DNA from: a virus
Strand: one strand, 5' to 3'
Length of the DNA: 64,000 nt
IMG/VR virus record: IMGVR_UViG_3300046694_000196
Coordinates: 1 to 64,000 of that record
Shown here piece by piece: positions 23,626-38,288 of the stretch (position 1 is its first letter; each line of letters starts with the position of its first letter). The position numbers were made by a program, and so were the translations under genes. The notes beneath the pieces were generated by a model. The model did not search any database. It was not told where the DNA came from and saw only the letters and a list, made by a program, of their open reading frames with translations.

Positions 23626-24072
23626 ATGAAACCCGCACGTAACTTTGACTTCTCCCGAGAAGACGGCGTCTCCCTGGCACAAGAGCTCACTCGAGTCATG
23701 CTGTCGTGTAACGCGGCCTCGCTCGGGGCCAACTCACCCGACGAGGAAGACCCCGTCAAGGCCTTTGTCATCAAGGCCAGTCCCGTGATCGCGGCGTTCA
23801 ACCCCCGAGTAGTCGACTACCTCGGAGAAGAGCTGTACCTCGAAGAGTCCTCGGCGTTCTATCCCGGACTCATAGTCAAGGTAAAGCGTCCCGAGGGGGT
23901 CAGGCTGAGGTTCACCCAGCCGAACGGCGAGACCGTCACCAAGGAGTACCACGGCCTCACGGCCCGACTGGTACTCCATGAGATGCACCACCTCCAGGGA
24001 GAACCGTTCTACTCCCACGCGACAAAGTACCACCGAGACCAGGCGCTTCGTCGCCAGAAGAGGAAGAAATGA
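23626..24072 (+). CDS. Peptide deformylase-like protein (motifs degenerate)
   Basis: Fold-typical order ASLGANS..FNP..EESSAFYPG..VKRP..ARLVLHEMHH; ATG 23626 with AGGAG. Confidence 0.8.
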   Translation: MKPARNFDFSREDGVSLAQELTRVMLSCNAASLGANSPDEEDPVKAFVIKASPVIAAFNPRVVDYLGEELYLEESSAFYPGLIVKVKRPEGVRLRFTQPNGETVTKEYHGLTARLVLHEMHHLQGEPFYSHATKYHRDQALRRQKRKK

Positions 24073-24632
24073 GCAAGGACATATTTCGAGACATCCGTGA
24101 GATGCACGACCACTTCGGCGTCCGCAAGGCAGTACTGAAACTCGACGTAGCCAGGCTGCGTGAGTTCCTGCGGTTCCGCGCAGACTGCGTCGCTGAAGAA
24201 GTGAGCGAGCTCGAGGCCGGCCTGAGACGTCCGGAAGAAGTCGTAGACGCGCTGATCGACATCATGGTCTTCGCGGCCGGCACCCTAGACCTCTTCGGAG
24301 TCGACGGACAGAAGGCCTGGGACGAGGTGCTCAAGGCCAACACTTCTAAAGAAGTCGGCGTCAAGGAAGGCCGACCGAACCCCTACGGTCTCCCAGACCT
24401 GGTAAAGCCCGCGGGCTGGGAAGCCCCGTCGCACGCCGACAACCACGGGTACCTGGACCGGTTCACATGTTCCAGCACCCGGGGCGCCTTCGAGAGGTGC
24501 CCGTACGGAGACGCCGGTCCACACATAGTGACGCACACCGAAGACGAGTGCAGTTACACCCGCAAGTATTCCGTCAACTGCAACAAGTGTGGACGCTCTC
24601 AGAACGGCGGCGACTGCCTTTCTCGAACTTAA
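24069..24632 (+). CDS. MazG-like (all-alpha) NTP pyrophosphohydrolase with Cys-rich tail
   Basis: EEVSE..VVDALID..DEVLKANTSK..DLVKPAGW motifs. Confidence 0.8.
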   Translation: MSKDIFRDIREMHDHFGVRKAVLKLDVARLREFLRFRADCVAEEVSELEAGLRRPEEVVDALIDIMVFAAGTLDLFGVDGQKAWDEVLKANTSKEVGVKEGRPNPYGLPDLVKPAGWEAPSHADNHGYLDRFTCSSTRGAFERCPYGDAGPHIVTHTEDECSYTRKYSVNCNKCGRSQNGGDCLSRT

Positions 24633-24866
24633 TCGTTTACATTCTCCCCCTCTCGTGATACTATGAGAATAGGTCACGAGAGGAAAGACTCATGGAAGAC
24701 CGTCACTCATTCGTAATACGCATCGAGACAGACATAGTCCCAGTGGCCCGCTCCGTCAGGGAGTCGGGTCTCTCCTTCGACGACGTCCGGCAGGACCGCC
24801 TCGACCCCGAGGAGTTCACTGTCTTCGTGTCAGGCCCCGCCATCAATTTTCAAAAATTCATTGCAC

Positions 24867-25451
24867 ATGACTCAAAAATTCAAGACCGGAGTCCAAGTCT
24901 CTATAGCCCTGTTTGAGGGCTGGGAGAAGTTCGGATACGACGAGAACTACTACGACCGGATGATCAGGACGATGTCTGACGTCATCTACCAGTCTCCAAA
25001 GCTTCATTCGGGGTACGCCTCTAAGAAGGCCTCGAACATGCTGTCGAAAGACGTCTGCCGCGAGCACTACTACTCGCGCACGGCCTCTGCCAAGAAGATG
25101 GTCGAGCTGATGAAGAAGGGGATACTGGGGCCGCACAAGATCGACCGCTTCGAGAAGTTCATGAGGTCCCGCGCGCGGGTGCACTTCGTGACTTCAGAAG
25201 AGAACACGCACCTCATCAAGTTCCAGTCCGACCCGTCCCTGCGGCACTGGAAGAAACAGTACGAGGCCGCCGGCATAGAACTGGAGCGGTGGGACACCAA
25301 TAAATATCTCTACAGGGTAGACGGGCGAGAGTTCTCCTCCGCTCCCGAGGTCGCCGCCGCGATGAACTGTCACGCGTCGACCGTAACGAAGAGGTGCACC
25401 AGCGACAAGTGGCCTACCTGGGAACGATCCTCGCGAAGTGGCGGGGCCTAG
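24867..25451 (+). CDS. Putative HNH-like nuclease with C-terminal NUMOD1/HTH-like domain
   Basis: CREH...HFVTSEEN and YRVDGREFSSAPEVAAAMNCHASTV. Confidence 0.45.
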   Translation: MTQKFKTGVQVSIALFEGWEKFGYDENYYDRMIRTMSDVIYQSPKLHSGYASKKASNMLSKDVCREHYYSRTASAKKMVELMKKGILGPHKIDRFEKFMRSRARVHFVTSEENTHLIKFQSDPSLRHWKKQYEAAGIELERWDTNKYLYRVDGREFSSAPEVAAAMNCHASTVTKRCTSDKWPTWERSSRSGGA

Positions 25452-26437: not shown

Positions 26438-28024
26438 ATGGCTCTCAGCAAGAACAAGAGACTGTCCACGGTACAACAGAAGAAGACCTACGCCATGCTG
26501 GCCCACCGCGTCTACGGTGCCGGCTACAATTCTGGCGCCGCGCCCCTCACGGGAGACGGCACCGCTAAGACGTACAGCAACACCTTCGTCAATGACTCCG
26601 GCGCGCCCATAACGGTCTTCTCGCTGGTTTTCCAGGGCTGGACATTGACTTCAGCGGGCACGACTGACACCGGTAACGACTACGTAGTGACCGGGAACGT
26701 GGAGTACCCCGTCGGCGGCACCACTACAGACGTGGGCTCGATTGTAGTCACTTCGGGCGCCGCGGTGGCGGGTCCGCCTACCAGGCCGGCCGTCACTATC
26801 CCAGCAGGCGCCTCGTTCAAAGTGAACCTGTCCAGCACAGTCGGCAACGGCCTCAAGTACATCGTCAACCTCGGCTTCGCGGGCCTGCGTAACCACGCCC
26901 CGGCCGGGACCATGAAGCGTCTGTGCGTCGCGGGCTTCGGTGACAGCATCATGACTAACAACGGAGGCGCCCTGTACAACGCGGCGCTCTCTAGGTGCCC
27001 CGCATACCTCTCTTCCATCATCGGCACGACCGCCGCCGCGTACGGCGCTTCCGGCGCAGCCAACTTCGTCAAGCAGGTCGCGATCTCTCAGCTGCTGGGC
27101 GCCACGCACGTCATGTCGAACTTCGGCACCAATGACTTCGGCGCAAGCACTCCTCTCTCGACCCTGCAGGGATACCTGGCCAGCATGCGAGACGTAGCCA
27201 GGTCTCGCGGCATGAAGTTCGTGCAGACGACCATGACTCCGCGTACCGCCACTACCGGCACCCTGACTGCCACCACGGTGACGTCTTCGGGGACTTCTAT
27301 GACCGTCGCGCTGTCAGACGTGTCAAAGTTCACGGTCAATCAGATGTACACGACTGCCGGCGCGACGCAGACAGAATACAACGGGAACTTCGTGTGCACC
27401 GCGGTCGACTCCGGCGCGGGGACCGTCACCCTGCTCTTTCCTGGCTCGGCTACCACGCCCGCTACTGGCACGATCACCGTGACTGCGTGGAAGTCACACG
27501 CTGCCCAGGTACTCTGGATGCAGCCCACCAATTCTTTCTACGCCTCGGGAGGCGCGAGCCCGCGCGGGCTGTTCAACGCCTGGGTGCGCGGCGGGGCCTT
27601 CGACTCCTACATAGACTGGGCCGACGCGGTCGAGCCGTCTAGAGACAGCGGGCGGTGGCTGGTCGCGGGTGAGTCTTCCCTGCTCAACGTCGCCCAGCTC
27701 ATAACCGTCGCCAGCGTGGTCAACACGTCCCGGTTCACATCAAACTACACTGCCGGGACTTCTACCATACCGAACGGCGCAGTACAGCCGGTCACCGGCG
27801 CCAACGCCGGCGTCTTCAAGGGTGGTAACGGTAACACCAACGGCGACATCACCGTCACCAGTGCCTGGACCAACGCCCAGGTCATAGGCGACCAGTACTG
27901 GGCGTTCCCCGGCACCTCTTACATGTCTGACGACGGGCTCCACCCGCGCGTCGCCGGCGGCGGCAAGGGCGGTCAGCCACACCTCGATAACGCCACGTCC
28001 GCGTGGATAACGGCTAACCTATAG
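26438..28024 (+). CDS. SGNH/GDSL hydrolase-domain protein, probably virion-associated
   Basis: GDSI (block I), NFGTND (block III), DDGLHP (block V); Thr/Gly-rich beta segments. Confidence 0.8.
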   Translation: MALSKNKRLSTVQQKKTYAMLAHRVYGAGYNSGAAPLTGDGTAKTYSNTFVNDSGAPITVFSLVFQGWTLTSAGTTDTGNDYVVTGNVEYPVGGTTTDVGSIVVTSGAAVAGPPTRPAVTIPAGASFKVNLSSTVGNGLKYIVNLGFAGLRNHAPAGTMKRLCVAGFGDSIMTNNGGALYNAALSRCPAYLSSIIGTTAAAYGASGAANFVKQVAISQLLGATHVMSNFGTNDFGASTPLSTLQGYLASMRDVARSRGMKFVQTTMTPRTATTGTLTATTVTSSGTSMTVALSDVSKFTVNQMYTTAGATQTEYNGNFVCTAVDSGAGTVTLLFPGSATTPATGTITVTAWKSHAAQVLWMQPTNSFYASGGASPRGLFNAWVRGGAFDSYIDWADAVEPSRDSGRWLVAGESSLLNVAQLITVASVVNTSRFTSNYTAGTSTIPNGAVQPVTGANAGVFKGGNGNTNGDITVTSAWTNAQVIGDQYWAFPGTSYMSDDGLHPRVAGGGKGGQPHLDNATSAWITANL

Positions 28025-28687: not shown

Positions 28688-29014
28688 CTAGCCCGTGATG
28701 ACTGCGACCTTGGTATTGGCCACGCAGCTGAACGACGCCGTAGACCCCGCCGGTATCCATACGCGGGGGTCCTGCGAGGCGTTGGCGGTGTTCGCCCCGA
28801 CCGCGAAGGCCACGAACACGTTGGCCGTCATGGGAGTGATGCTCACGTAGTTAGCAGTCGCCGGGCACGGCGTAGAAGTGTTGCCCTCTGCCACGGTCTG
28901 CGAGACGAACGTGGTGTCTAGCACCGGTCCGCGCTTGTTGAGTCCGAATATTACCTGTGTGGCCACGACGTTCTCCGTTGACAAATCCACGATTTCTTGA
29001 TAGAATACCCTCAA
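28688..29014 (-). CDS. Small late (probably structural) protein; real start possibly the internal GTG (MATQVIF)
   Basis: TATAAATA on minus strand at 29015-29022; beta-type composition. Confidence 0.6.
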   Translation of the reverse strand: MRVFYQEIVDLSTENVVATQVIFGLNKRGPVLDTTFVSQTVAEGNTSTPCPATANYVSITPMTANVFVAFAVGANTANASQDPRVWIPAGSTASFSCVANTKVAVITG

Positions 29015-29033: not shown

Positions 29034-29576
29034 ATGAAACACCAGTCACCCGCCGAGCGTGAGTCTGTGAAAGTACTGCGCGAGTGCATAGAACTCCAGA
29101 CCAAGAAGTCGAGGGACTACCAGTCTGACCGTTCTACTGTACGCCAGGCAGACTACTACCCCCGCGGCGTAGAGTCAATCTACGACATGATGAACACCAA
29201 GATGCTGCGACTCCGCAGCCTCATGGACGCGGGGGGAGACCCCAACTTCGAGTCGCTCGAGGACACCGCTCGCGACCTAGTGAACTACACCAGCTTCTTC
29301 GCGGCCTACATACGCGGCGGCGTAGACGGACAGAGCGTAGACCGGGACATGTACAACCGGCCACTTCCCGTCGACGATACTCCCAAGATGTCATTCGAAG
29401 AATTCGCGTCGTACGGGTCTTCCAATCCCGGCGGTAGTGATCCCGTTCCCACCTGTACTGACGAGCCCTCACTTGGGTTTCGCCGCGTGTCCTACGAAGG
29501 TACGACCTCTATCTGGACCGACCCGAACGGGCTCCCGTTCTCTTTCCGTGACGGCAAGGTGACTTACCTTGACTGA
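29034..29576 (+). CDS. Nucleotide-modification-associated domain 1 (DUF1599/Nmad1-like) protein
   Basis: LQTKKSRDYQ..KMLRL..ESLEDTARDLVNY helical motif; overlaps gp42-like gene. Confidence 0.65.
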   Translation: MKHQSPAERESVKVLRECIELQTKKSRDYQSDRSTVRQADYYPRGVESIYDMMNTKMLRLRSLMDAGGDPNFESLEDTARDLVNYTSFFAAYIRGGVDGQSVDRDMYNRPLPVDDTPKMSFEEFASYGSSNPGGSDPVPTCTDEPSLGFRRVSYEGTTSIWTDPNGLPFSFRDGKVTYLD

Positions 29577-30273
29577 GGTGAACATGAAAGTGCGTGACAT
29601 CCGACTCCTGTTCGCCGGCATGCTGGCCCGCGGCGAGTTCGTGACCGGCCGGGGAGACCAGCAGATGCTGGAAGTGCTCGGTGTCAGTTTCATCGCCGAC
29701 GAGGCTTCTGTCTTCGGCAAGGTCAACGAAGAGTACGTCGACCGAGAGATCGCGTGGTACGAGAGCGAGTCGACCAACGTGAACGACATCGGCCCCGACG
29801 TGCCGGCTGCGTGGAAAGCGACCGCGAACGAGCACGGCGAGGTCAACTCCAACTACGGGCACTTGATATTCTCAGAAAAGTATCACTCCCAGTTCCGCCG
29901 CGTGATAGAAGAGCTGGGTGAGAACCCCGAGAGCCGCCGCGCTATCATGGTCTACACTCGCCCTTCGATCTGGGTGGAGTACGACGAGAACGGCAAGAAC
30001 GACTTCATCTGCACCAACGCGGTCCAGTACCTAGTCAGAAACGACAGGGTGCACGCGGTCGTGCAGATGCGTTCTAACGACCTCGTGTACGGCTACAAGA
30101 ACGACCGTTACTGGCAGAGGTACGTGCTCGAGACAGTGGCGTTCAAGCTGGGTCTGCACGTCGGCGAGATACACTGGCAGGTCGGCAGCCTCCACGTCTA
30201 CCCTCGGCACTTCCGCCTCGTGCAGCAGTACAGGGAGTCTGACCAGTACGCACAGGACTTGACTCTTGCCTGA
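29569..30273 (+). CDS. gp42: dCMP hydroxymethylase-like (thymidylate synthase fold, cytosine-type)
   Basis: REIAWY, DFICTNAVQYL, MRSNDLVYGYKND, GSLHVYPRHF closely match T4 gp42; Asp at the specificity position. Confidence 0.88.
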   Translation: MTEVNMKVRDIRLLFAGMLARGEFVTGRGDQQMLEVLGVSFIADEASVFGKVNEEYVDREIAWYESESTNVNDIGPDVPAAWKATANEHGEVNSNYGHLIFSEKYHSQFRRVIEELGENPESRRAIMVYTRPSIWVEYDENGKNDFICTNAVQYLVRNDRVHAVVQMRSNDLVYGYKNDRYWQRYVLETVAFKLGLHVGEIHWQVGSLHVYPRHFRLVQQYRESDQYAQDLTLA

Positions 30274-30523
30274 AGTGTACAAGATGGGATCGGCCCCTCC
30301 AGGCGCAGTGTACGTCGGCCGAGGGTCTCCCTACGGGAACCCCTTCGTGCTAGGACGTGACGGCGACCGAGACGCAGTCTGTGACCGCTTCGAAGCAGAA
30401 GTGCTGCCGGCCCTAGACGTGTCTCCCCTGAGAGGAAAGGACCTGGTGTGTCACTGTGTTCCTAAGCGGTGCCACGCCAGTTCTATCTTGAGAAAAGCTA
30501 ACTACGAGGAATTTTGGTCATGA
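30266..30523 (+). CDS. DUF4326-like protein
   Basis: VYVGRGSPYGNPF..LRGKDLVCHCVPKRCHA. Confidence 0.8.
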   Translation: MPEVYKMGSAPPGAVYVGRGSPYGNPFVLGRDGDRDAVCDRFEAEVLPALDVSPLRGKDLVCHCVPKRCHASSILRKANYEEFWS

Positions 30524-31155
30524 GTCACTACGACGTCAATACCGGTTACTACCTGTTCAAGCTCATCGAGGCCCTGAAGGCCGATCCGCTCTCGGCGTTC
30601 CACATCGATGAGCTGTTTCAAGGGTCGAACGCCTCACTCGAGGGCTGGTACGAAGAGTACAAGAAATCCGACGAGATGACGCGGATGTGGAGCGAGGCCG
30701 TGGTAACGTCATCAACGGATTGGTACGGCTGATGTCTTGGGTCTTACTCACAGTCAATCCCCTTGAACTGGTCGCTATCGTCTTCCTCGCCCTCTTGCTG
30801 GCAGCGTACGTGCTCTTGGTGACCATCCGAGTGATCACCGCCAAGGTGTCCGCGCTGGTCACTCGAGTCAAGGGCTACTTCCGTGACTGAGCGCGTCACT
30901 GCCGCAGCGTGCCGCCACCCCGACGGGGGAGTGTATTCCCTGGCACCCCCAGCCCGTCACGGACAGGTCCTCCGCCTAGTCGAGTCGTGTTACCCCGAAG
31001 ACAGGGAAGCAGTCTTCAAGGTAGAACAGGGCTTCGTCACTAGCGGTAACAGGTTCGTGACCCGCACAGAAGCACGGAAGATCGCAGACCACGCGGGTCA
31101 GTCTTCTGATCGCGACATGCACCTCCCAGAACTCTTCAGCGAGGACCTCTGGTGA
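30520..31155 (+). other. Three small hypothetical ORFs (30520-30732, ~30709-30890, 30883-31155)
   Basis: Coupled ORFs; last ends FSEDLW. Confidence 0.55.
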
Positions 31156-31601
31156 ACATAGGGTCCAAGTCAGGCTACCCGTCTTCGTCACTGTCTAACT
31201 TCGCGCCTCACAGGTTCGTCATCGACGGCGTAGAGTGCGCGTCACTCGAGGGCTGGCTGCAGTCCCTCAAGTTCGACAAGGAACACGTGCAGGTAGAAGT
31301 CTGCAAGCTGGTCGGTCTCGAGGCCAAGTACCGCGGCAAGAAGCGAAACGGCTCCTGGCAGCGCGTCCAGACGCTGTGGTGGAAGGGCGTCGCCTACGAC
31401 CGTCACTCGACCGCCTACCAGAAGCTCCTAGACCGAGCCTACTATGCCGCGTTCGAGCAGTGTGACTCTTTCCGTCGCGCGCTCGCTGCTACGGGTGACA
31501 GCGTGCTGACCCACTCCATAGGACACAACGACTCTTCGAAGACGGTGCTCACCGAGCGTGAGTTCTGTCGCCGCCTGACGAAACTGCGGGAGCTGACGTG
31601 A
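31152..31601 (+). CDS. NADAR-family protein (T4 gp30.3-like)
   Basis: SSLSNFA..F..DG....LEGWLQSLK..TLWWKG..LTHS..TVLTEREF pattern as in gp30.3. Confidence 0.75.
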   Translation: MNIGSKSGYPSSSLSNFAPHRFVIDGVECASLEGWLQSLKFDKEHVQVEVCKLVGLEAKYRGKKRNGSWQRVQTLWWKGVAYDRHSTAYQKLLDRAYYAAFEQCDSFRRALAATGDSVLTHSIGHNDSSKTVLTEREFCRRLTKLRELT

Positions 31602-31721: not shown

Positions 31722-32273
31722 GTGTGTAAGTACTGTGAAGACGAAGAACACTTCAAGTTCGACATCGCCCGAGTGTCTTCGAATTACGACTCGTTCGTGA
31801 TCCGGGACCCCGCCGCGGATCACGCAGAGCGAGACAAGAAATGGCACGCCCGCTACCTGGACCTGGCCGAGCACGTCTCTTCGTGGTCACTCGACCCGTC
31901 TACGAAAGTCGGCGCGGTAGCGTTCCGTGACGGCCAGGTGCTGTCGCTGTCATACAACGGCTTCCCCCGCGGCATCCGAGACAGCGAAGAGCGCCTGAAC
32001 GACCGCGAGACGAAGTACGGAATGATCGTGCACGCCGAGATGAACGTCATCTACAACGCGTCACTGACCGGAGTATCACTCAAGGGGGCGACGCTGTACG
32101 TGTCGGGGCTCCCTGTGTGCTCGACTTGTACGCTCGGAGTCATCCAGGCCGGCATCTCTCGCGTGGTCATCCGTTCGCGAGACATAAATAGGTCCGAGAA
32201 ATGGAGAGCGTCCTGGGACAAGAGCAGCGAGCTGCTCAGAGAAGCGGGCGTAGCGGTAGTCGTAGTTGACTAG
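31722..32273 (+). CDS. cd: dCMP deaminase
   Basis: KVGAV, YNGFPRG, HAEMN and PVCSTC zinc ligands. Confidence 0.9.
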   Translation: MCKYCEDEEHFKFDIARVSSNYDSFVIRDPAADHAERDKKWHARYLDLAEHVSSWSLDPSTKVGAVAFRDGQVLSLSYNGFPRGIRDSEERLNDRETKYGMIVHAEMNVIYNASLTGVSLKGATLYVSGLPVCSTCTLGVIQAGISRVVIRSRDINRSEKWRASWDKSSELLREAGVAVVVVD

Positions 32274-32317
32274 TCTCGGTTTCATGATAGTATGCAACAT
32301 CATCGAGGACACTTGAA

Positions 32318-33430
32318 GTGACTACAAAGAAACTTTTGTTGACTGGTATGAACAAAAACCAGTGCGTGCGGAATTTCTTCCTGAAGCAGGAACTGAACGT
32401 CGTCCCGTCTTCCTACGCCCTCATAAGGGCCTTCGAGGACATGGGCTACGAGGTAGACCAGAGGCCGGTGACCCTCGGGGAAGACCTGTCCCACTACGAC
32501 GAGGTCGTAATCTACATCCACAGCCCGAAGGCCTTCTGTCAGTTCCTCTGGTCAGGTCTCTACGCCGTGCACGCCCGCCCGGACGCGATCTTCGCGTTCG
32601 ATGACTGGCAGGTCAAGCAGATCATGTACTCGATCAAGTCGTACAACGACTACCTGATCGAAGAGGACTACGTCAAGGCCTACAAGGACTACTACTTCGA
32701 CCTGTGGCAGGGCAGGGAGTCTCGAGAAGAGGTCGCCCTCTACTCGGCCCAGTACCGCGAGGCCTGCGAGCGCATCCTCCGCAAGGAGAACAGGCTGCTG
32801 ATCTCGGCCTTCGCGGGCGGAAACGTCGACGCACTCAACCTGGACTGGAAGGGGAACGTGTTCACGTTCAACCCGAACCCGTACCACCTGAACCGCACCC
32901 CCGAGAACAACTTCGGCGTCGAGAAAGTCAAGACGTTCGACGACTTCTTCGGCGGAGACGAAGAGGCGGTCAAGAAGCATGAGTGGAACTTCGCGTCGCT
33001 TGTCCAGAAGAAGACCCGCGCGTGGGTAGACAAGCAGGGAGTGAAGTCCTGGCCCATCAACTACTACGGCTCCAAGAGGAACGAGGAGAAGTGCGAGCGC
33101 CTGACAGAAGACCAGATGTGCCGCAAGTTCTCCACCCAGTGGGGCATCCTCTATCCGGGATACGGCAAGATGTGTGAGTCGGGCTGGTGGCGGGCGCGCC
33201 CTCTCCAGGTCGCGGACGCCGGCTCTATCCTGGTCGGTGAGAAACCCGAGCTTATGATCTACTACAGGGACGCGTCCCTCATCCAGAGCGCCTCCACCGT
33301 AGAGGGACTCACCGACGCGCAGCTAGAGAAGCTCGCGAGGTGGCAGCGCGAGGCCCTGTATGCGAACCACCCCCTCGACAAGTCGGTCACTCGGCGAGAA
33401 CTGGAGGCAGTCCTCGATGCACCCAGATAA
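32318..33430 (+). CDS. GT-B-like glycosyltransferase 1
   Basis: N-terminal Rossmann-type LLLTG; C-terminal GILYPGY..SGWWRARPLQVADAG motif of phage DNA GTs. Confidence 0.6.
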   Translation: MTTKKLLLTGMNKNQCVRNFFLKQELNVVPSSYALIRAFEDMGYEVDQRPVTLGEDLSHYDEVVIYIHSPKAFCQFLWSGLYAVHARPDAIFAFDDWQVKQIMYSIKSYNDYLIEEDYVKAYKDYYFDLWQGRESREEVALYSAQYREACERILRKENRLLISAFAGGNVDALNLDWKGNVFTFNPNPYHLNRTPENNFGVEKVKTFDDFFGGDEEAVKKHEWNFASLVQKKTRAWVDKQGVKSWPINYYGSKRNEEKCERLTEDQMCRKFSTQWGILYPGYGKMCESGWWRARPLQVADAGSILVGEKPELMIYYRDASLIQSASTVEGLTDAQLEKLARWQREALYANHPLDKSVTRRELEAVLDAPR

Positions 33431-34481
33431 GAACAGACGCATACTCGTGATCGGCGCTGGCTTCTCAGGAGCAGTCATCGCCCGTGAGCTAGCAGAGTTC
33501 GGGTGGGACGTGTACGTCATGGACAAGCGAGACCACGTTGCGGGCAACGCCTATGACTACGAGCACAACCTTGGGCCACGCGTACACAAGTACGGCCCGC
33601 ACCTTTTCCACACCAACAACGAGCGAGTCTGGGACTACCTCCAGCGCTTCGGCGACTGGGTCCCGTACAGGCACAGAGTGAAGGCCATGCTCAAGGACGG
33701 GCGCTTCGTGACGCTACCCGTCAACCGAGAGACCAAGGAGGTCGTGGGTGAAGAGAACGTGCTCGACGTGTTCTACAGGCCATACACACGAAAGATGTGG
33801 GGCGTGGAGCTTGACGAACTTGATCCTTCCGTTGCGAAGCGAGTGCCAGTCCGCGACGACGACAACGAGTTCTACTTCCCTGACGACGCATTCCAGGCGC
33901 TGCCGCGAGAAGGGTACACTCAACTGGTCAGGAATATCCTGGACCACGAGAACATCACTGTGGGACTAGGACGGAAATTCTTCAAAGGGTTGGAACAGTA
34001 CTACTTTCACGTCTTCAATTCTATGCCGATCGACGAGTACTATGACTTCTGTTTCGGCGAGCTCCCGTACAGGTCCATCAAGTTCAGTACCCGCTTCGTC
34101 TCTCACCCGAACTTCTTTGACGACCTCCCCGCCGCCACCGTGAACTTCACTGGAGACGGCCCGTTCACGCGAGTCACGTGCTGGAACAAGCTCCCGAACT
34201 CACCGCCGGCAGAGCACGACGTCTGGACGTACGAGCAGCCATGTGACTACCGCGACAACGACATGGAGCGGTACTACCCGGTGAAGGACCGAGACGGCAA
34301 GAACCGCGCCACGTACGAGCAGTACAAGGCGATCCCGAACGAGAAGACTACTTTCATCGGCAGGACCGGGCTCTACGCCTACCTCGACATGCACCAGGCA
34401 GTCAACATAGCACTACAGACCGCGAAGAAGTTCAATGACGCGCACAGCAGCGATATTCACGACCAGGGCGTTCAGCTCTGA
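33417..34481 (+). CDS. glf: UDP-galactopyranose mutase
   Basis: IGAGFSGA FAD motif, HVAGNAYD, HKYGPHLFHT, RYYPV, GRTGLYAYLDMHQ. Confidence 0.93.
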   Translation: MHPDKNRRILVIGAGFSGAVIARELAEFGWDVYVMDKRDHVAGNAYDYEHNLGPRVHKYGPHLFHTNNERVWDYLQRFGDWVPYRHRVKAMLKDGRFVTLPVNRETKEVVGEENVLDVFYRPYTRKMWGVELDELDPSVAKRVPVRDDDNEFYFPDDAFQALPREGYTQLVRNILDHENITVGLGRKFFKGLEQYYFHVFNSMPIDEYYDFCFGELPYRSIKFSTRFVSHPNFFDDLPAATVNFTGDGPFTRVTCWNKLPNSPPAEHDVWTYEQPCDYRDNDMERYYPVKDRDGKNRATYEQYKAIPNEKTTFIGRTGLYAYLDMHQAVNIALQTAKKFNDAHSSDIHDQGVQL

Positions 34482-35523
34482 CTTCACTTCCCTCTACGAG
34501 TCCATGCACTTCCTGAGGGAGTACGACAGGATAGTGTTCTACCACGCCTACGGCACCGACAAGGTGGTCGAGGCAGTCGAGAGACTCGGCCGCGTCGTCG
34601 TCTCTGAGGTAGTGCACACCAAGTCCTGGTTCGACCGGTGCGTATCCGGCGACTTTCCTACCTGGAGGCATTTCTATGAAGCTTTCGACCCTCACGTCCC
34701 GGAACGCGGGATTGATGACGTCTACCTCTTTGGCGCGCCTCTCTCAGACGGCGGAAAGCTCAAGAGGAAGCACAACGGTCTACAGAAGAACCTTGACAAC
34801 AACAAGTTCATCACCTTCGTCAGCGTCGCTAAGCATTACTTCACCGCTTACGCGGCTGTCAAGCTCGCTAACGTCACCGGAGCCGCTTTCCACGAGGTGT
34901 GCTATGACCCTGGAGAGAACTCTGTGGGGCAGCTCGTTGACGTCATACGACCGGTCTCTGTTCGCGTTTACCACGGCTACGACATAGCGCGCTTCGGCAT
35001 AGAGAAGCACCGTTTCTTCCAGGACGGCATGGCCCAGTCGCGGTCTTCTCCCTTCGATGACGACGATGAAGTCGACCACGACGTGGTCTTCGGCTACAGC
35101 TACATGACCAGGGACCGCCGAGCCTCCCACGAGTACGCTCAAGACGTCATCTCGGTCGTGCGGTCACTCCCGGGAGTCAGGTCTCGCTTCCTGGTGAAGA
35201 ACAAGGTCGAGGGCTACGACACGTCTGTGAGTCGTGAGGAGTACATGCGACTCATCCGCAAGTCACGGTTCACGTTCGTGGCGCCGGCGTACGAGCCAGG
35301 CGTCTTCTCGCCGTTCAGGTACATCGAGGCCGTCTTGTCGGGCTGCCTCCCCCTCGTCTTCGAGACCTGCGCATACAGAGAGTTCTTTGACTCGTGGGGC
35401 GTCCCCGTGGACTCCGTGCACGCGACGATAGTCAACCGTGGCAGCGTAGCGGCTGCACTAGAGATGGACGAGATGGACCGGCGGGCGCTGGTGGAGTACC
35501 TCCGCGCCAAGTTTCTCGCGTAG
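34435..35523 (+). CDS. GT-B-like glycosyltransferase 2
   Basis: EYMRLIRKSRFTFVAPAY..FRYIEAVLSGCLPL C-terminal GT-B pattern. Confidence 0.65.
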   Translation: MTRTAAIFTTRAFSSDFTSLYESMHFLREYDRIVFYHAYGTDKVVEAVERLGRVVVSEVVHTKSWFDRCVSGDFPTWRHFYEAFDPHVPERGIDDVYLFGAPLSDGGKLKRKHNGLQKNLDNNKFITFVSVAKHYFTAYAAVKLANVTGAAFHEVCYDPGENSVGQLVDVIRPVSVRVYHGYDIARFGIEKHRFFQDGMAQSRSSPFDDDDEVDHDVVFGYSYMTRDRRASHEYAQDVISVVRSLPGVRSRFLVKNKVEGYDTSVSREEYMRLIRKSRFTFVAPAYEPGVFSPFRYIEAVLSGCLPLVFETCAYREFFDSWGVPVDSVHATIVNRGSVAAALEMDEMDRRALVEYLRAKFLA

Positions 35524-35535
35524 CCCCTCCCGGCC

Positions 35536-35543
35536 TATAAATA
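35536..35543 (+). promoter_or_regulatory. T4-type late promoter upstream of methyltransferase-like gene
   Basis: TATAAATATCCTA, 13 nt shared with gp18/gp19 promoters. Confidence 0.75.
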
Positions 35544-35573: not shown

Positions 35574-36758
35574 ATGAACGCAATGACTTGGTCCTCTATC
35601 GTCCCCCTCATCGGCGGCGAGACCATAGCCATGGAGAGGGTCTTCGGCAACCGCCCAGAAGAACTGCTCTCCTACTCCCCATTCGCTTCTAACGACGCGC
35701 ACATCGTGAACCACTACGACGGCGAGGTCCCCTACCGCCTGATCGACAAGGAAGAGTTCACCCCCCGCCGCGTAGACGTAGTCAACTCGGTCTGCCCCTG
35801 CGCAGGGCTCTCGTCTCTGTCTCCCACTTCCGCTGCGGACTCTAAGGTCAACGAGTGGATGTTCGAGTCGTCGAAATACGTCTTCGAGAACGTCAAGCCG
35901 ACCGTGCTCTGGGGAGAGAACGCCCCCCACTTCGCTACGAACAAGGGCACGCTGATCCGAGAACGGCTGCGAGACATGGCACTCGACCACGGGTACTCCA
36001 TGAGCGTCATGAAGACGAAGTCACTCGTGCACGGCCTGCCCCAGATCAGGACCAGGAGCTTCTACTTCTTCTGGCGAGGCATGGACGCGCCGCTCTTTGA
36101 CTACTACCACCGGCCGCACGTCAAGATAGAAGACCTCATCCGGGGAGTCAAGTCAAACTCCCAGAGAGAAGTCATCGGCCGGGGAAAACCGTCTGACAAC
36201 AAGTACCTCGAGTTCATCCTCGAGCACGTCCGCAGGCAGACTTTCCAGGAGTTCTATGACTCCCTGCAGAAGTCTGAGAGCGTCATCACGATCATCGAGC
36301 AAGAGTCCGACTGGGTCTCGTGCGCTGAGTGGATGGAGTCCAAGGGGTACGACCGCGAGGCCAAGTCGTCACGACGCCGCCAGGCCAAGCTCGACGACAA
36401 CAAGGGCTACATGAAGAAAGACCTGCTGTTCGCGAAGGACTACATCGGCGCGTTCGTCGGGCACCTCCCTCACTCCATCAGGCACCCCGACGAAGACCGC
36501 TTCATCGACTACCGCGAGGCCATGACCATCATGGGGCTCCCCGACGACTTCGAGCTGCTCGACCCGAAGCACAGCTCCAACCACATATGCCAGAACGTCC
36601 CGGTGCAGACCGCGACCGACATGGCCACGGAGGTCCGAGAAGTACTCCTCGGCAACAGGAGGTCCTCGGGGCACAGGTACGTGCTGCAGGACAACGTTCA
36701 CCAGAAAGTAGAAGAGACCCTCTTCCCCTCGAAGACACTCGTAGACTTCGCTGTCTGA
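35574..36758 (+). CDS. C5-cytosine DNA methyltransferase-like protein
   Basis: PLIGG (motif I, atypical), PCAGLS (IV), ENAP (VI), QIRTR (VIII), QNVP (X). Confidence 0.75.
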   Translation: MNAMTWSSIVPLIGGETIAMERVFGNRPEELLSYSPFASNDAHIVNHYDGEVPYRLIDKEEFTPRRVDVVNSVCPCAGLSSLSPTSAADSKVNEWMFESSKYVFENVKPTVLWGENAPHFATNKGTLIRERLRDMALDHGYSMSVMKTKSLVHGLPQIRTRSFYFFWRGMDAPLFDYYHRPHVKIEDLIRGVKSNSQREVIGRGKPSDNKYLEFILEHVRRQTFQEFYDSLQKSESVITIIEQESDWVSCAEWMESKGYDREAKSSRRRQAKLDDNKGYMKKDLLFAKDYIGAFVGHLPHSIRHPDEDRFIDYREAMTIMGLPDDFELLDPKHSSNHICQNVPVQTATDMATEVREVLLGNRRSSGHRYVLQDNVHQKVEETLFPSKTLVDFAV

Positions 36759-36822: not shown

Positions 36823-37062
36823 ATGGCACTATCCGGTTCAAACGGCGACTACTATCGCCTGCCCGAAGCCGCCCGCGAGCTTCAAGACCTCATCGAACAC
36901 CGCAACATGAACTTCGCCGTCGGGAACATATTCAAGGCCTGCTACAGGCTCGGTTCCAAAGAGGGCACCGACGACGTGTACGACCTCGAGAAGATGATCT
37001 TCTTCGCGTCGAGGGAGCTGGCACGAATCAAGAAGGAGAGACGCGATGTACACTGCGATTAG
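36823..37062 (+). CDS. DUF3310-like protein
   Basis: YY..QDLIE..NFAVGNIFKACYRLGSK..DLEK. Confidence 0.75.
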   Translation: MALSGSNGDYYRLPEAARELQDLIEHRNMNFAVGNIFKACYRLGSKEGTDDVYDLEKMIFFASRELARIKKERRDVHCD

Positions 37063-37304: not shown

Positions 37305-38288
37305 TTGCAATTCAACATTGAAATCGAGAAACTGAGAGAGTGCAAGCTCTTCGTGGCAGTGCCGATGTACGGCGGGATGTGCCACGGTAACTTCACTCGC
37401 TCCATCATGGACCTCACCGCGCTCTGTGCCCGCTACAGTGTCCACATGCGCACGTACTTCCTCTTCAACGAGTCCCTGATCAGCCGCGCGCGCGCGTACT
37501 GTGCCGACGAGTTCCTCCGCTCTGACTGCACCCACATGCTCTTCATCGACGCCGACATCACGTTCAACGCGAACGACGTCATCGCGATGATAGCGGTCCA
37601 GCTCATGGACCCCGAGAACAAGGACATCGTCGCGGCGGCTTACCCCAAGAAGTGCATCACCTGGGAGAAGATCAAGCTGGCAGTCGACAAGGGCTTCGCT
37701 GACGAGGACCCCAACAGGCTCGAGGACTTCGTGGGTGACTTCGTGTTCAACCCGGTGTCCGGCACTTCCATCCTGCTAAGTGAGCCCGCCGAGGTCGCCG
37801 AGGCCGGCACCGGCTTCATGCTCATCCCGCGCAACACGTTCGACCGCTTTAACGTGGCGTACCCCGAGTTCCGGTACCTGCCAGACCACGCGCGCAGCGA
37901 CAACTTCGACGGCACCCGCGAGATCACCATGTTCTTCGACTGCGTCATCGACAAGGACCGCAAGGAGTCTGAGTTCGAGGCGATGATGGACGACATCCTG
38001 GCACTAGAAGTAGGTTCTCCTGACGACGAGCTCGACGTCGAGAAACTGCAGGCCAAGGTCAAGGACATCCGTCTCCGTGAGAAGAACAGCTCGAAGAGGT
38101 ACCTGTCGGAGGACTACTACTTCTGCCAGAACGTCCGCAGGGCCGGCATGAAGGTGTGGATCTGTCCGTGGATCGAGCTGCAGCACAGCGGTTTCTACAC
38201 GTTCGGGGGCAAGCTCGCCGCGCTCGCCGCGATCGGCGCCTCCGCCACAGTCGACAAAGACGCACTAAAGAAGAGAGCCAAGGCATGA
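37305..38288 (+). CDS. GT-A fold glycosyltransferase-like protein
   Basis: LFVAVPMYG, SLISRAR, HMLFIDADI (DxD), GTGFMLI, LSEDYYFC, H motif. Confidence 0.75.
   Translation: MQFNIEIEKLRECKLFVAVPMYGGMCHGNFTRSIMDLTALCARYSVHMRTYFLFNESLISRARAYCADEFLRSDCTHMLFIDADITFNANDVIAMIAVQLMDPENKDIVAAAYPKKCITWEKIKLAVDKGFADEDPNRLEDFVGDFVFNPVSGTSILLSEPAEVAEAGTGFMLIPRNTFDRFNVAYPEFRYLPDHARSDNFDGTREITMFFDCVIDKDRKESEFEAMMDDILALEVGSPDDELDVEKLQAKVKDIRLREKNSSKRYLSEDYYFCQNVRRAGMKVWICPWIELQHSGFYTFGGKLAALAAIGASATVDKDALKKRAKA

Follow-up and report, generated by a model that had tools for sequence, protein, structure and literature searches.

Glycosylated hydroxymethylcytosine is the classic shield of phages against restriction enzymes and CRISPR and also the target of type IV restriction systems, and each new DNA sugar changes which defences are evaded. 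The phage DNA sugars found in the literature surveyed are glucose, arabinofuranose, galactose (ring form not stated), N-acetylhexosamine and heptose; galactofuranose (Galf) is mentioned only as a proposal for one Rhizobium phage (PMC13326640). The present analysis concerns the first 64 kb (64,000 nucleotides, in the following the window) of the 126-kb IMG/VR virus record IMGVR_UViG_3300046694_000196, which has an estimated completeness of 73%. Here a gene encoding a UDP-galactopyranose mutase (UGM; Glf) lies between two glycosyltransferase genes, GT1 and GT2, downstream of a gene for a gp42-type dCMP hydroxymethylase, and the module probably serves to place Galf on 5-hydroxymethylcytosine (5hmC) in DNA.

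For the Rhizobium phage RL38J1 and the Pootjesviridae, galactosyl-(glucosyl)n-5-hydroxycytosine was described and a phage Glf was proposed to supply UDP-Galf (PMC13326640). RL38J1 resembles the window in its phage-encoded mutase for cytosine glycosylation, and several of its transferases build an oligosaccharide. The acceptor differs, as that of RL38J1 is 5-hydroxycytosine formed by a flavin-dependent thymidylate synthase (TS) homologue with the exchange D169N, whereas D169 of the window enzyme predicts 5hmC. Judged by gene numbers (Glf 084; transferases 151, 215 and 237), the RL38J1 Glf is apparently not adjacent to its transferases. Glfs of Rhizobium phages are about 33% identical to the Glf of the window (RHph_N34), and tblastn with GT1 and GT2 gave no match in Rhizobium phages, so that the RL38J1 transferases are probably different. 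Within the literature searched (most subscription journals lay outside it) only PMC13326640 links Glf to DNA hypermodification, and the word 'mutase' is absent from the main text of a 2021 survey of Tevenvirinae base-modification genes. An initial sequence-only reading of the window had called the presumed modification unusual; it is less novel than that, since phage Glf was already proposed for galactosylated cytosine in RL38J1 (PMC13326640). Some records of Aeromonas phages do carry a Glf annotation. We know of no demonstration of Galf on DNA.

The hydroxymethylcytosine glucosylation of T4 shares with the window a gp42-type hydroxymethylase with identical signature residues, GT-B transferases for which T4 beta-glucosyltransferase (BGT) is the nearest solved structure, a location amid replication and nucleotide-metabolism genes, and a presumed post-replicative transfer from a UDP-sugar. 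Unlike T4, the window has transferases without a match to PF09198 and with almost no sequence similarity to BGT, and a partner gene for a C5-cytosine-methyltransferase-like (C5-MTase-like) protein. As a donor-modifying Glf is encoded by the phage, the donor is probably UDP-Galf and not the host UDP-glucose used by T4. The poly-arabinofuranosyl-5-hydroxycytosine of RB69 and DLP3 likewise combines a furanose on C5-derivatised cytosine with clustered donor-synthesis and transferase genes in T4-like phages, but it is a pentose modification made via an arabinose-5-phosphate route on a 5-hydroxycytosine acceptor by unrelated enzymes. Hydroxylation of a DNA base followed by its glycosylation is the scheme of the phage MT/TET(5mYOX)/GT clusters and of base J in kinetoplastids (JBP + JGT/TAGT); relatives of the window module pair GT1-Glf, or Glf alone, with TET/JBP or TAGT (the C48C1 clade and locus L155, see below). 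Unlike the MT/TET/GT clusters, the incomplete record of the window yielded no TET/JBP gene (no PF12851 match in the 126 kb), and hydroxymethylcytosine would be made at the nucleotide level. Finally, the bacterial Glf of lipopolysaccharide (LPS) and cell-wall synthesis belongs to the same family, with conserved FAD motif and substrate-binding residues; the window Glf differs in a helical domain that lacks about 38 residues and in its lytic-phage context beside DNA-modification genes.

The genes on which the comparison is based are the following:

29569..30273, plus strand: predicted gp42-type dCMP hydroxymethylase (PF00303, 8.7e-19; 46% identity to T4 gp42)
32318..33430, plus strand: GT1, GT-B glycosyltransferase, distant relative of T4 BGT (phrog_14998; AlphaFold2 pLDDT 92.9)
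33417..34481, plus strand: Glf, UDP-galactopyranose mutase, short form (PF03275, 5.7e-48; Klebsiella pneumoniae UGM, 1.2e-68)
34435..35523, plus strand: GT2, second GT-B glycosyltransferase (AlphaFold2 pLDDT 85.1; 10 homologues only)

For a prediction of the acceptor base the gp42-like enzyme was compared with related enzymes. TS homologues of the RB69 type make 5-hydroxy-dCMP, and in the numbering of E. coli ThyA N177D is diagnostic for a dCMP substrate, L143D/E for a hydroxymethyl product and D169N for a hydroxylase (PMC13326640, published 2026). An alignment that included E. coli ThyA, T4 gp42 and, as control, the enzyme of the Mosigvirus JK42 showed D143, C146, D169 and D177 in the window homologue, identical to T4 gp42 and with the catalytic Cys at C146, and N169 in JK42. 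All fully covered gp42 homologues beside GT1 in the fetched loci carry the same four residues, as do those of Erwinia phage FBB1 and Aeromonas phage 25. From this signature the enzyme is predicted to make 5-hydroxymethyl-dCMP and not the 5-hydroxy-dCMP of RB69-type phages. An acceptor of 5-hydroxycytosine, as in RB69, DLP3 and RL38J1, might be expected because the only Glf-linked DNA modification found in the literature searched is a glycosylated 5-hydroxycytosine. We rejected it as hardly credible on the D169 signature: neither the window enzyme nor any of the 72 homologues checked has the exchange D169N, which marks 5-hydroxy-dCMP synthases (RB69 gp48 type), and identity to T4 gp42 is 46% versus about 23% to the RB69-type enzyme.

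Both transferase models have T4 BGT as their best PDB match. For GT1 the match has Z 18.7 and a root-mean-square deviation of 3.6 over 304 aligned residues, the next non-phage structure reaching Z 16.3; for GT2 the values are Z 16.1, 4.3 and 278 residues, followed by Z 14.8. T4 BGT entries took the top four rows of the re-alignment for both models, and the alpha-glucosyltransferase (AGT) of T4 and the DNA glycosyltransferase of phage HY126 were also among the structural matches. With hhalign, the N-terminus of GT1 gave a faint match to the BGT sequence (E 0.005, probability 6.9%) and GT2 gave none. PF09198, the T4 BGT family, had no match in the 126-kb record (T4 control, 1e-99), while the T4 alpha-glucosyltransferase profile PF11440 missed the T4 control itself, and no claim is made that an AGT homologue is absent. 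GT1 and GT2 were also considered as paralogues, which was rejected at an hhalign probability of 0.1%. A glycosyltransferase fold alone is no proof of a DNA acceptor; we propose GT1 as hydroxymethylcytosine-DNA galactofuranosyltransferase and GT2 as a transferase of a second sugar.

The GT1 family is represented among uncultured phages by 649 metagenomic clusters and 209 viral contigs, and the 80 best GT1 loci (IMG/VR metagenomic phages) were compared. These share a fixed order, namely pdf, MazG, DUF1599, gp42, dCMP deaminase, GT1, [Glf], [GT2], C5-MTase-like, [exonuclease], phrog_1574, gp45 and gp44, where brackets mark genes that may be missing. A gp42 homologue is present in 71 loci, and most of the nine others are truncated on the upstream side of GT1. 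Glf is present in 49 loci and GT2 in four; 45 of the 49 Glf-bearing loci do without GT2, and in these Glf stands directly behind GT1. The GT2 homologues examined (L011, L012, L015, L052, L110, L111) are all located inside the GT1/Glf/C5-MTase-like cassette. The neighbourhood of a GT2-like gene in a Vibrio phage consists of hypothetical proteins only. These sequence comparisons mark GT1 as the central transferase linked to gp42; Glf is an accessory gene inserted behind it, and GT2 an uncommon addition.

The sequence-only reading had proposed that the phage makes a furanose donor and that two transferases build a mono- or disaccharide on (hydroxymethyl)cytosine in DNA. Comparative evidence, that is the gp42 signature, the BGT-like folds, the synteny with gp42 and the recurrence of GT1-Glf behind TET/JBP elsewhere, speaks for this part; the triad as a unit did not hold up, since the frequencies of Glf and GT2 show that it is not the basic unit. 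Chance does not account for the arrangement, which is met again in dozens of independent phage contigs from metagenomes. The gene overlaps were reproduced exactly. GT1 begins with GTG behind a GAGGA Shine-Dalgarno sequence and ends with TAA at 33428-33430; Glf starts with the ATG at 33417, 9 nt past a GGAGG, and stops at 34479-34481, which gives a GT1/Glf overlap of 14 nt; GT2, whose N-terminus is conserved among its homologues, starts with the ATG at 34435 and overlaps Glf by 47 nt. A longer Glf open reading frame (ORF) starting at 33360 was rejected because homologue alignments gave no support. The distance of about 2 kb between the gp42-like gene and the triad was also correct (2,045 nt from the end of the former to GT1). 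GT1, Glf and GT2 appear to form a translationally coupled group downstream of a weak sigma-70-like promoter.

The sequence of the mutase itself allowed a prediction of its reaction. Glf scored 163.7 bits against PF03275 (cut-off 26.3) and has the FAD-binding GxGxxG motif (VIGAGFSG). In the alignment to 2bi7 the residues Y155, W160, R174, Y185, R250, R280, Y314, R343, Y349 and D351 are all conserved; the mapped Tyr, Trp and Arg residues are those that bind the substrate in UGMs. The enzyme is predicted to interconvert UDP-galactopyranose and UDP-Galf. No real epimerase of the short-chain dehydrogenase/reductase (SDR) type and no UDP-glucose dehydrogenase were detected in the incomplete record of the phage, where the only matches were to the Rossmann N-terminus of Glf; with no epimerase in the window, the pathway would have to draw on host UDP-galactose. 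The Glf of C48C1 has 336 aa and that of Aeromonas phage 25 has 354 aa, which makes both similarly short by length.

Bacterial UGMs can also interconvert UDP-L-arabinopyranose and UDP-L-arabinofuranose, so Glf could act as a UDP-arabinopyranose mutase and the DNA could carry arabinofuranosyl-5hmC; the sequence-only reading had left galactofuranosyl and arabinofuranosyl side by side. In 15 Glf-bearing loci a gene for a GalE-like epimerase (TIGR01179, 2.2e-60) directly precedes GT1, and none of the 31 loci without Glf has one there; GalE-like enzymes are the most frequent companions of GT1-Glf. For RB69 and DLP3, arabinofuranose on cytosine is established, but these use D-arabinofuranose, 5-hydroxycytosine and unrelated enzymes (PMC13326640). 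The UDP-glucose dehydrogenase and second SDR enzyme found in two related loci, L111 and L015, could lead to UDP-pentoses, whereas neither type of enzyme was found in the incomplete record of the phage itself, in which all checked UGM substrate-binding residues are conserved. Because GalE-like epimerases travel with GT1-Glf and the arabinose route of RB69 involves 5-hydroxycytosine and different enzymes, galactofuranose is favoured over arabinofuranose, which we consider very improbable here. The two loci in question (L111:3325-11766 and L015, both with GT1-GT2-Glf) encode a GalE-like epimerase in addition, and the DNA glycans of their phages may be more complex or include pentoses.

GT1 and Glf are not confined to phages with gp42. 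Among cultured carriers the nearest is phage C48C1 (Glf 56%, GT1 33% identical), and its record contains no TS homologue and no PF00145 match. C48C1, with GT1 and Glf in the absence of gp42, was regarded as evidence against a DNA role, which was dropped once the gene overlapping the GT1 start proved to be a TET/JBP dioxygenase (PF12851, 3.3e-17), followed by GT1-Glf (whole cassette at L001:6561-10008). In the 19 metagenomic loci of the C48C1 clade (L091-L109) TET and Glf were each found in 17, the exceptions being truncated contigs, and GalE is located between TET and GT1 in most of them. Because C48C1 lacks a PF00145 match, the acceptor there may be hydroxymethyluracil, and the cassette of this clade may produce galactofuranosyl-hydroxymethyluracil, a modification similar to base J. 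In a reverse survey starting from Glf, most close homologues were directly behind GT1. A third transferase family paired with Glf is the TET-associated glycosyltransferase (TAGT): in L155:2826-5008 a 59%-identical Glf follows a TAGT gene (PF20691, 9e-41) between DNA polymerase B and UvsX, and L178 and L179 contain a TAGT-Glf pair that is more distantly related. Among cultured gp42 phages, the Aeromonas phage 25 group, Stenotrophomonas phage IME13 and Erwinia phage FBB1 have Glf and a GT1 homologue between motA and asiA. Of these, phage 25 and FBB1 were searched for a PF09198 BGT, and none was found, with T4 as positive control. Other Aeromonas phages with gp42, Glf and a GT1 homologue are phiAS4, Aes508 and AS-gz, whereas 44RR2.8t, related to phage 25, has neither Glf nor the GT1 homologue according to its annotation.

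These contexts also bear on the possibility that the sugars go not to DNA but to virion protein, to surface polysaccharide of the host or to a small molecule, with the proximity to gp42 reflecting only shared early-gene placement. Bacterial Glf normally serves cell-wall and LPS synthesis, Streptococcus prophages carry glf, and in eight loci (L134-L138, L161, L162, L165) close Glf homologues of about 60% identity lie amid GT8, GT25 and methyltransferase genes resembling LPS-type enzymes and an epimerase gene, with no gp42 or TET within 4 kb (e.g., L135:1935-7953). Against this stand the three DNA-base-modification contexts of Glf (gp42, TET/JBP and TAGT), a DNA glucosyltransferase as the best structural match of both transferases, and the lack of a canonical BGT in the module-bearing gp42 phages FBB1 and phage 25. 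An acceptor other than DNA is for these reasons quite unlikely in the window.

It could further be assumed that the sugar which GT1 attaches to 5hmC is an ordinary pyranose (glucose or galactopyranose), as is presumably the case for its Glf-less relatives, and that Galf comes second, as an outer sugar for which GT2 or the product of a gene located elsewhere would be responsible. GT1 homologues without Glf occur in at least 21-31 loci, from which it follows that the GT1 family needs no UDP-Galf, and in the window a second BGT-like transferase is translationally coupled to Glf. Yet Glf stands directly behind GT1 and mostly without GT2, the TET-linked clade has GT1 as its only transferase, together with Glf, and Glf-linked and Glf-less GT1 proteins differ at positions 190, 224, 293, 295 and 296, inside the most conserved motifs of the family. 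We therefore regard a pyranose as the first sugar as unlikely and prefer the transfer of Galf by GT1.

The acceptor, donor, order of action and biological effect that we infer from the observed gene identities, signature residues, folds, synteny and co-occurrence can be put as follows. The gp42-type enzyme would make 5-hydroxymethyl-dCMP, aided by a MazG-type pyrophosphatase, which would clear dCTP, and by a dCMP deaminase; the DNA polymerase would incorporate the hydroxymethylated nucleotide, so that 5-hydroxymethyl-dC replaces dC. Glf would turn host UDP-galactopyranose into UDP-Galf, and after replication GT1 would transfer Galf to the 5-hydroxymethyl group of cytosine in DNA by O-glycosylation. 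GT2 would add a further sugar or modify sites left by GT1. The product, a mono- or disaccharide on hydroxymethylcytosine, would shield the DNA from restriction and CRISPR nucleases.

Several observations weigh against this reading. The DNA modification is deduced here from genes and models. The GT-B fold is generic, BGT leads the other structural matches by only 1-2.5 Z units, and neither GT1 nor GT2 matched any glycosyltransferase family of Pfam or NCBIfam. Known galactofuranosyltransferases are mostly GT-A enzymes. Glf remains with 274.5 bits below the cut-off of the TIGR00031 equivalog (303.75), a shortfall that goes with the loss of about 38 residues of the helical domain (K. pneumoniae residues 104-141). 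A tree of GT1 places the 21 Glf-less proteins together in a single group (SH-aLRT 99), so that presence of Glf is a single change and the co-variation of GT1 and Glf is one event, which is suggestive only. The GT8/GT25 clusters without a base-hydroxylating enzyme make a non-DNA acceptor possible for some Glfs. Searches of the 126-kb, 73% complete record for a gp1-type dNMP kinase and for a thymidylate-kinase homologue gave no real match, and the C5-MTase-like protein would have no obvious substrate in a genome fully substituted with hydroxymethylcytosine. Taking all this into account, we consider it likely that the module glycosylates DNA, and we assign a probability of roughly 0.6 to the full sequence of events, with UDP-Galf made by Glf, Galf transferred by GT1 to the 5hmC of DNA and a further sugar contributed by GT2.

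On a broader and tentative view, Galf would be a widespread DNA-base sugar of environmental phages, installed by a portable GalE-GT1-Glf cassette which draws on a hydroxymethylpyrimidine supply from gp42 (as here) or TET/JBP (as in C48C1-like phages), with Glf joined to TAGT elsewhere; in the window GT2 would extend it to a Galf disaccharide on every cytosine, and the late-expressed C5-MTase-like protein, the constant companion of GT1 in this lineage, would act on the modified DNA in a hitherto undescribed way. We would bet slightly against all of these parts being true together.

The locus and its many relatives suggest that Galf-hydroxymethylcytosine, and possibly Galf-hydroxymethyluracil, is common in uncultured T4-like phages, and they define a compact enzyme set of GalE, Glf and a BGT-like transferase. 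The module is also present in cultured phages (those of Aeromonas and Erwinia, and C48C1), which makes its chemistry directly testable. The transferases could serve to label 5hmC with galactofuranose, a sugar which to our knowledge mammals do not make.

Further features of the neighbourhood are:

24069..24632, plus strand: MazG/PRA-PH-type NTP pyrophosphatase (PF01503, 9.4e-08)
28978..29006, plus strand: sigma-70-like promoter (TTGACA-17-TAGAAT, TG) ahead of DUF1599-gp42 (11/12 positions; consensus match only)
29034..29576, plus strand: DUF1599 protein, nucleotide modification associated domain 1 (PF07659, 6.1e-4, below cut-off)
30266..30523, plus strand: DUF4326 small protein (PF14216, 8.1e-18)
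31152..31601, plus strand: T4 gp30.3-like protein, a bystander (PF08010, 1.1e-57)
31722..32273, plus strand: dCMP deaminase (PF00383, 1.2e-15)
32266..32293, plus strand: weaker sigma-70-like promoter directly upstream of GT1 (9/12 positions with TG; consensus match only)
35536..35543, plus strand: T4-type late promoter TATAAATA of the C5-MTase-like gene (sequence match)
35574..36758, plus strand: C5-MTase-like protein (PF00145, 5.9e-14, 52.7 bits; cut-off 22)

Comparison of the 80 loci showed which of these genes accompany the module. The dCMP deaminase gene lies between gp42 and GT1 in 56 of them, and a MazG homologue is found upstream of gp42 in 39; the MazG-type enzyme may be the candidate that clears dCTP, as a functional analogue of T4 gp56. 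The DUF1599 gene overlaps the gp42 start by 8 nt and is syntenic with gp42 in 57 loci. The sequence-only reading had placed a dCMP deaminase, a C5-MTase-like gene and DUF3310 in this cluster; the first two were confirmed, whereas DUF3310 was rejected as a sub-threshold match (13.3 bits, cut-off 24, at 36907-36993) and DUF1599 and DUF4326 were found instead. Since hydroxymethyl-dCMP needs phosphorylation, it may be mentioned that L111, L015, L024, L026 and L027 carry a gene for a 191-aa Tmk-like protein upstream of gp42.

The C5-MTase-like gene adjoins GT1, Glf or GT2 in 74 of the 80 loci. The protein keeps the PC(A), ENA and QxRxR motifs; motif I (FxGxG) appears degenerate, the N-terminus reading PLIGG outside the profile match. 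Behind its late promoter an 8-bp inverted repeat (hairpin) covers the AGGA ribosome-binding site of the gene. The weak GT21 match of phrog_1574 (37305-38288) made it a candidate part of the module, which was rejected because the gene is conserved upstream of gp45 in many T4-like phages without the module.

According to its sequence the source of the window (GC about 59%) is a T4-like phage, because homologues of gp45, gp44, gp62 and RegA are encoded at 38.6-41.3 kb and the T4 late-promoter box TATAAATA is repeated. The box occurs in 10 copies, versus 0.08 expected by chance, and it follows that the phage uses T4-type late promoters; nine copies are on the plus strand, and the sites include 795, 4418, 9856, 35536 and 62636. 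A megablast search with positions 29.0-38.3 kb against 50,697 phage records gave no match, so that at the DNA level none of the cultured phages is closely related. Amid nucleotide-metabolism genes a GDSL/SGNH esterase-like protein of 528 aa is encoded at 26438-28024. The ORF at 24861-25451 encodes an I-TevI-like DNA-binding domain, and in the related locus L110 the Glf and GT2 genes are separated by an inserted gene for a GIY-YIG (SegE-like) homing endonuclease (L110:2849-3565).

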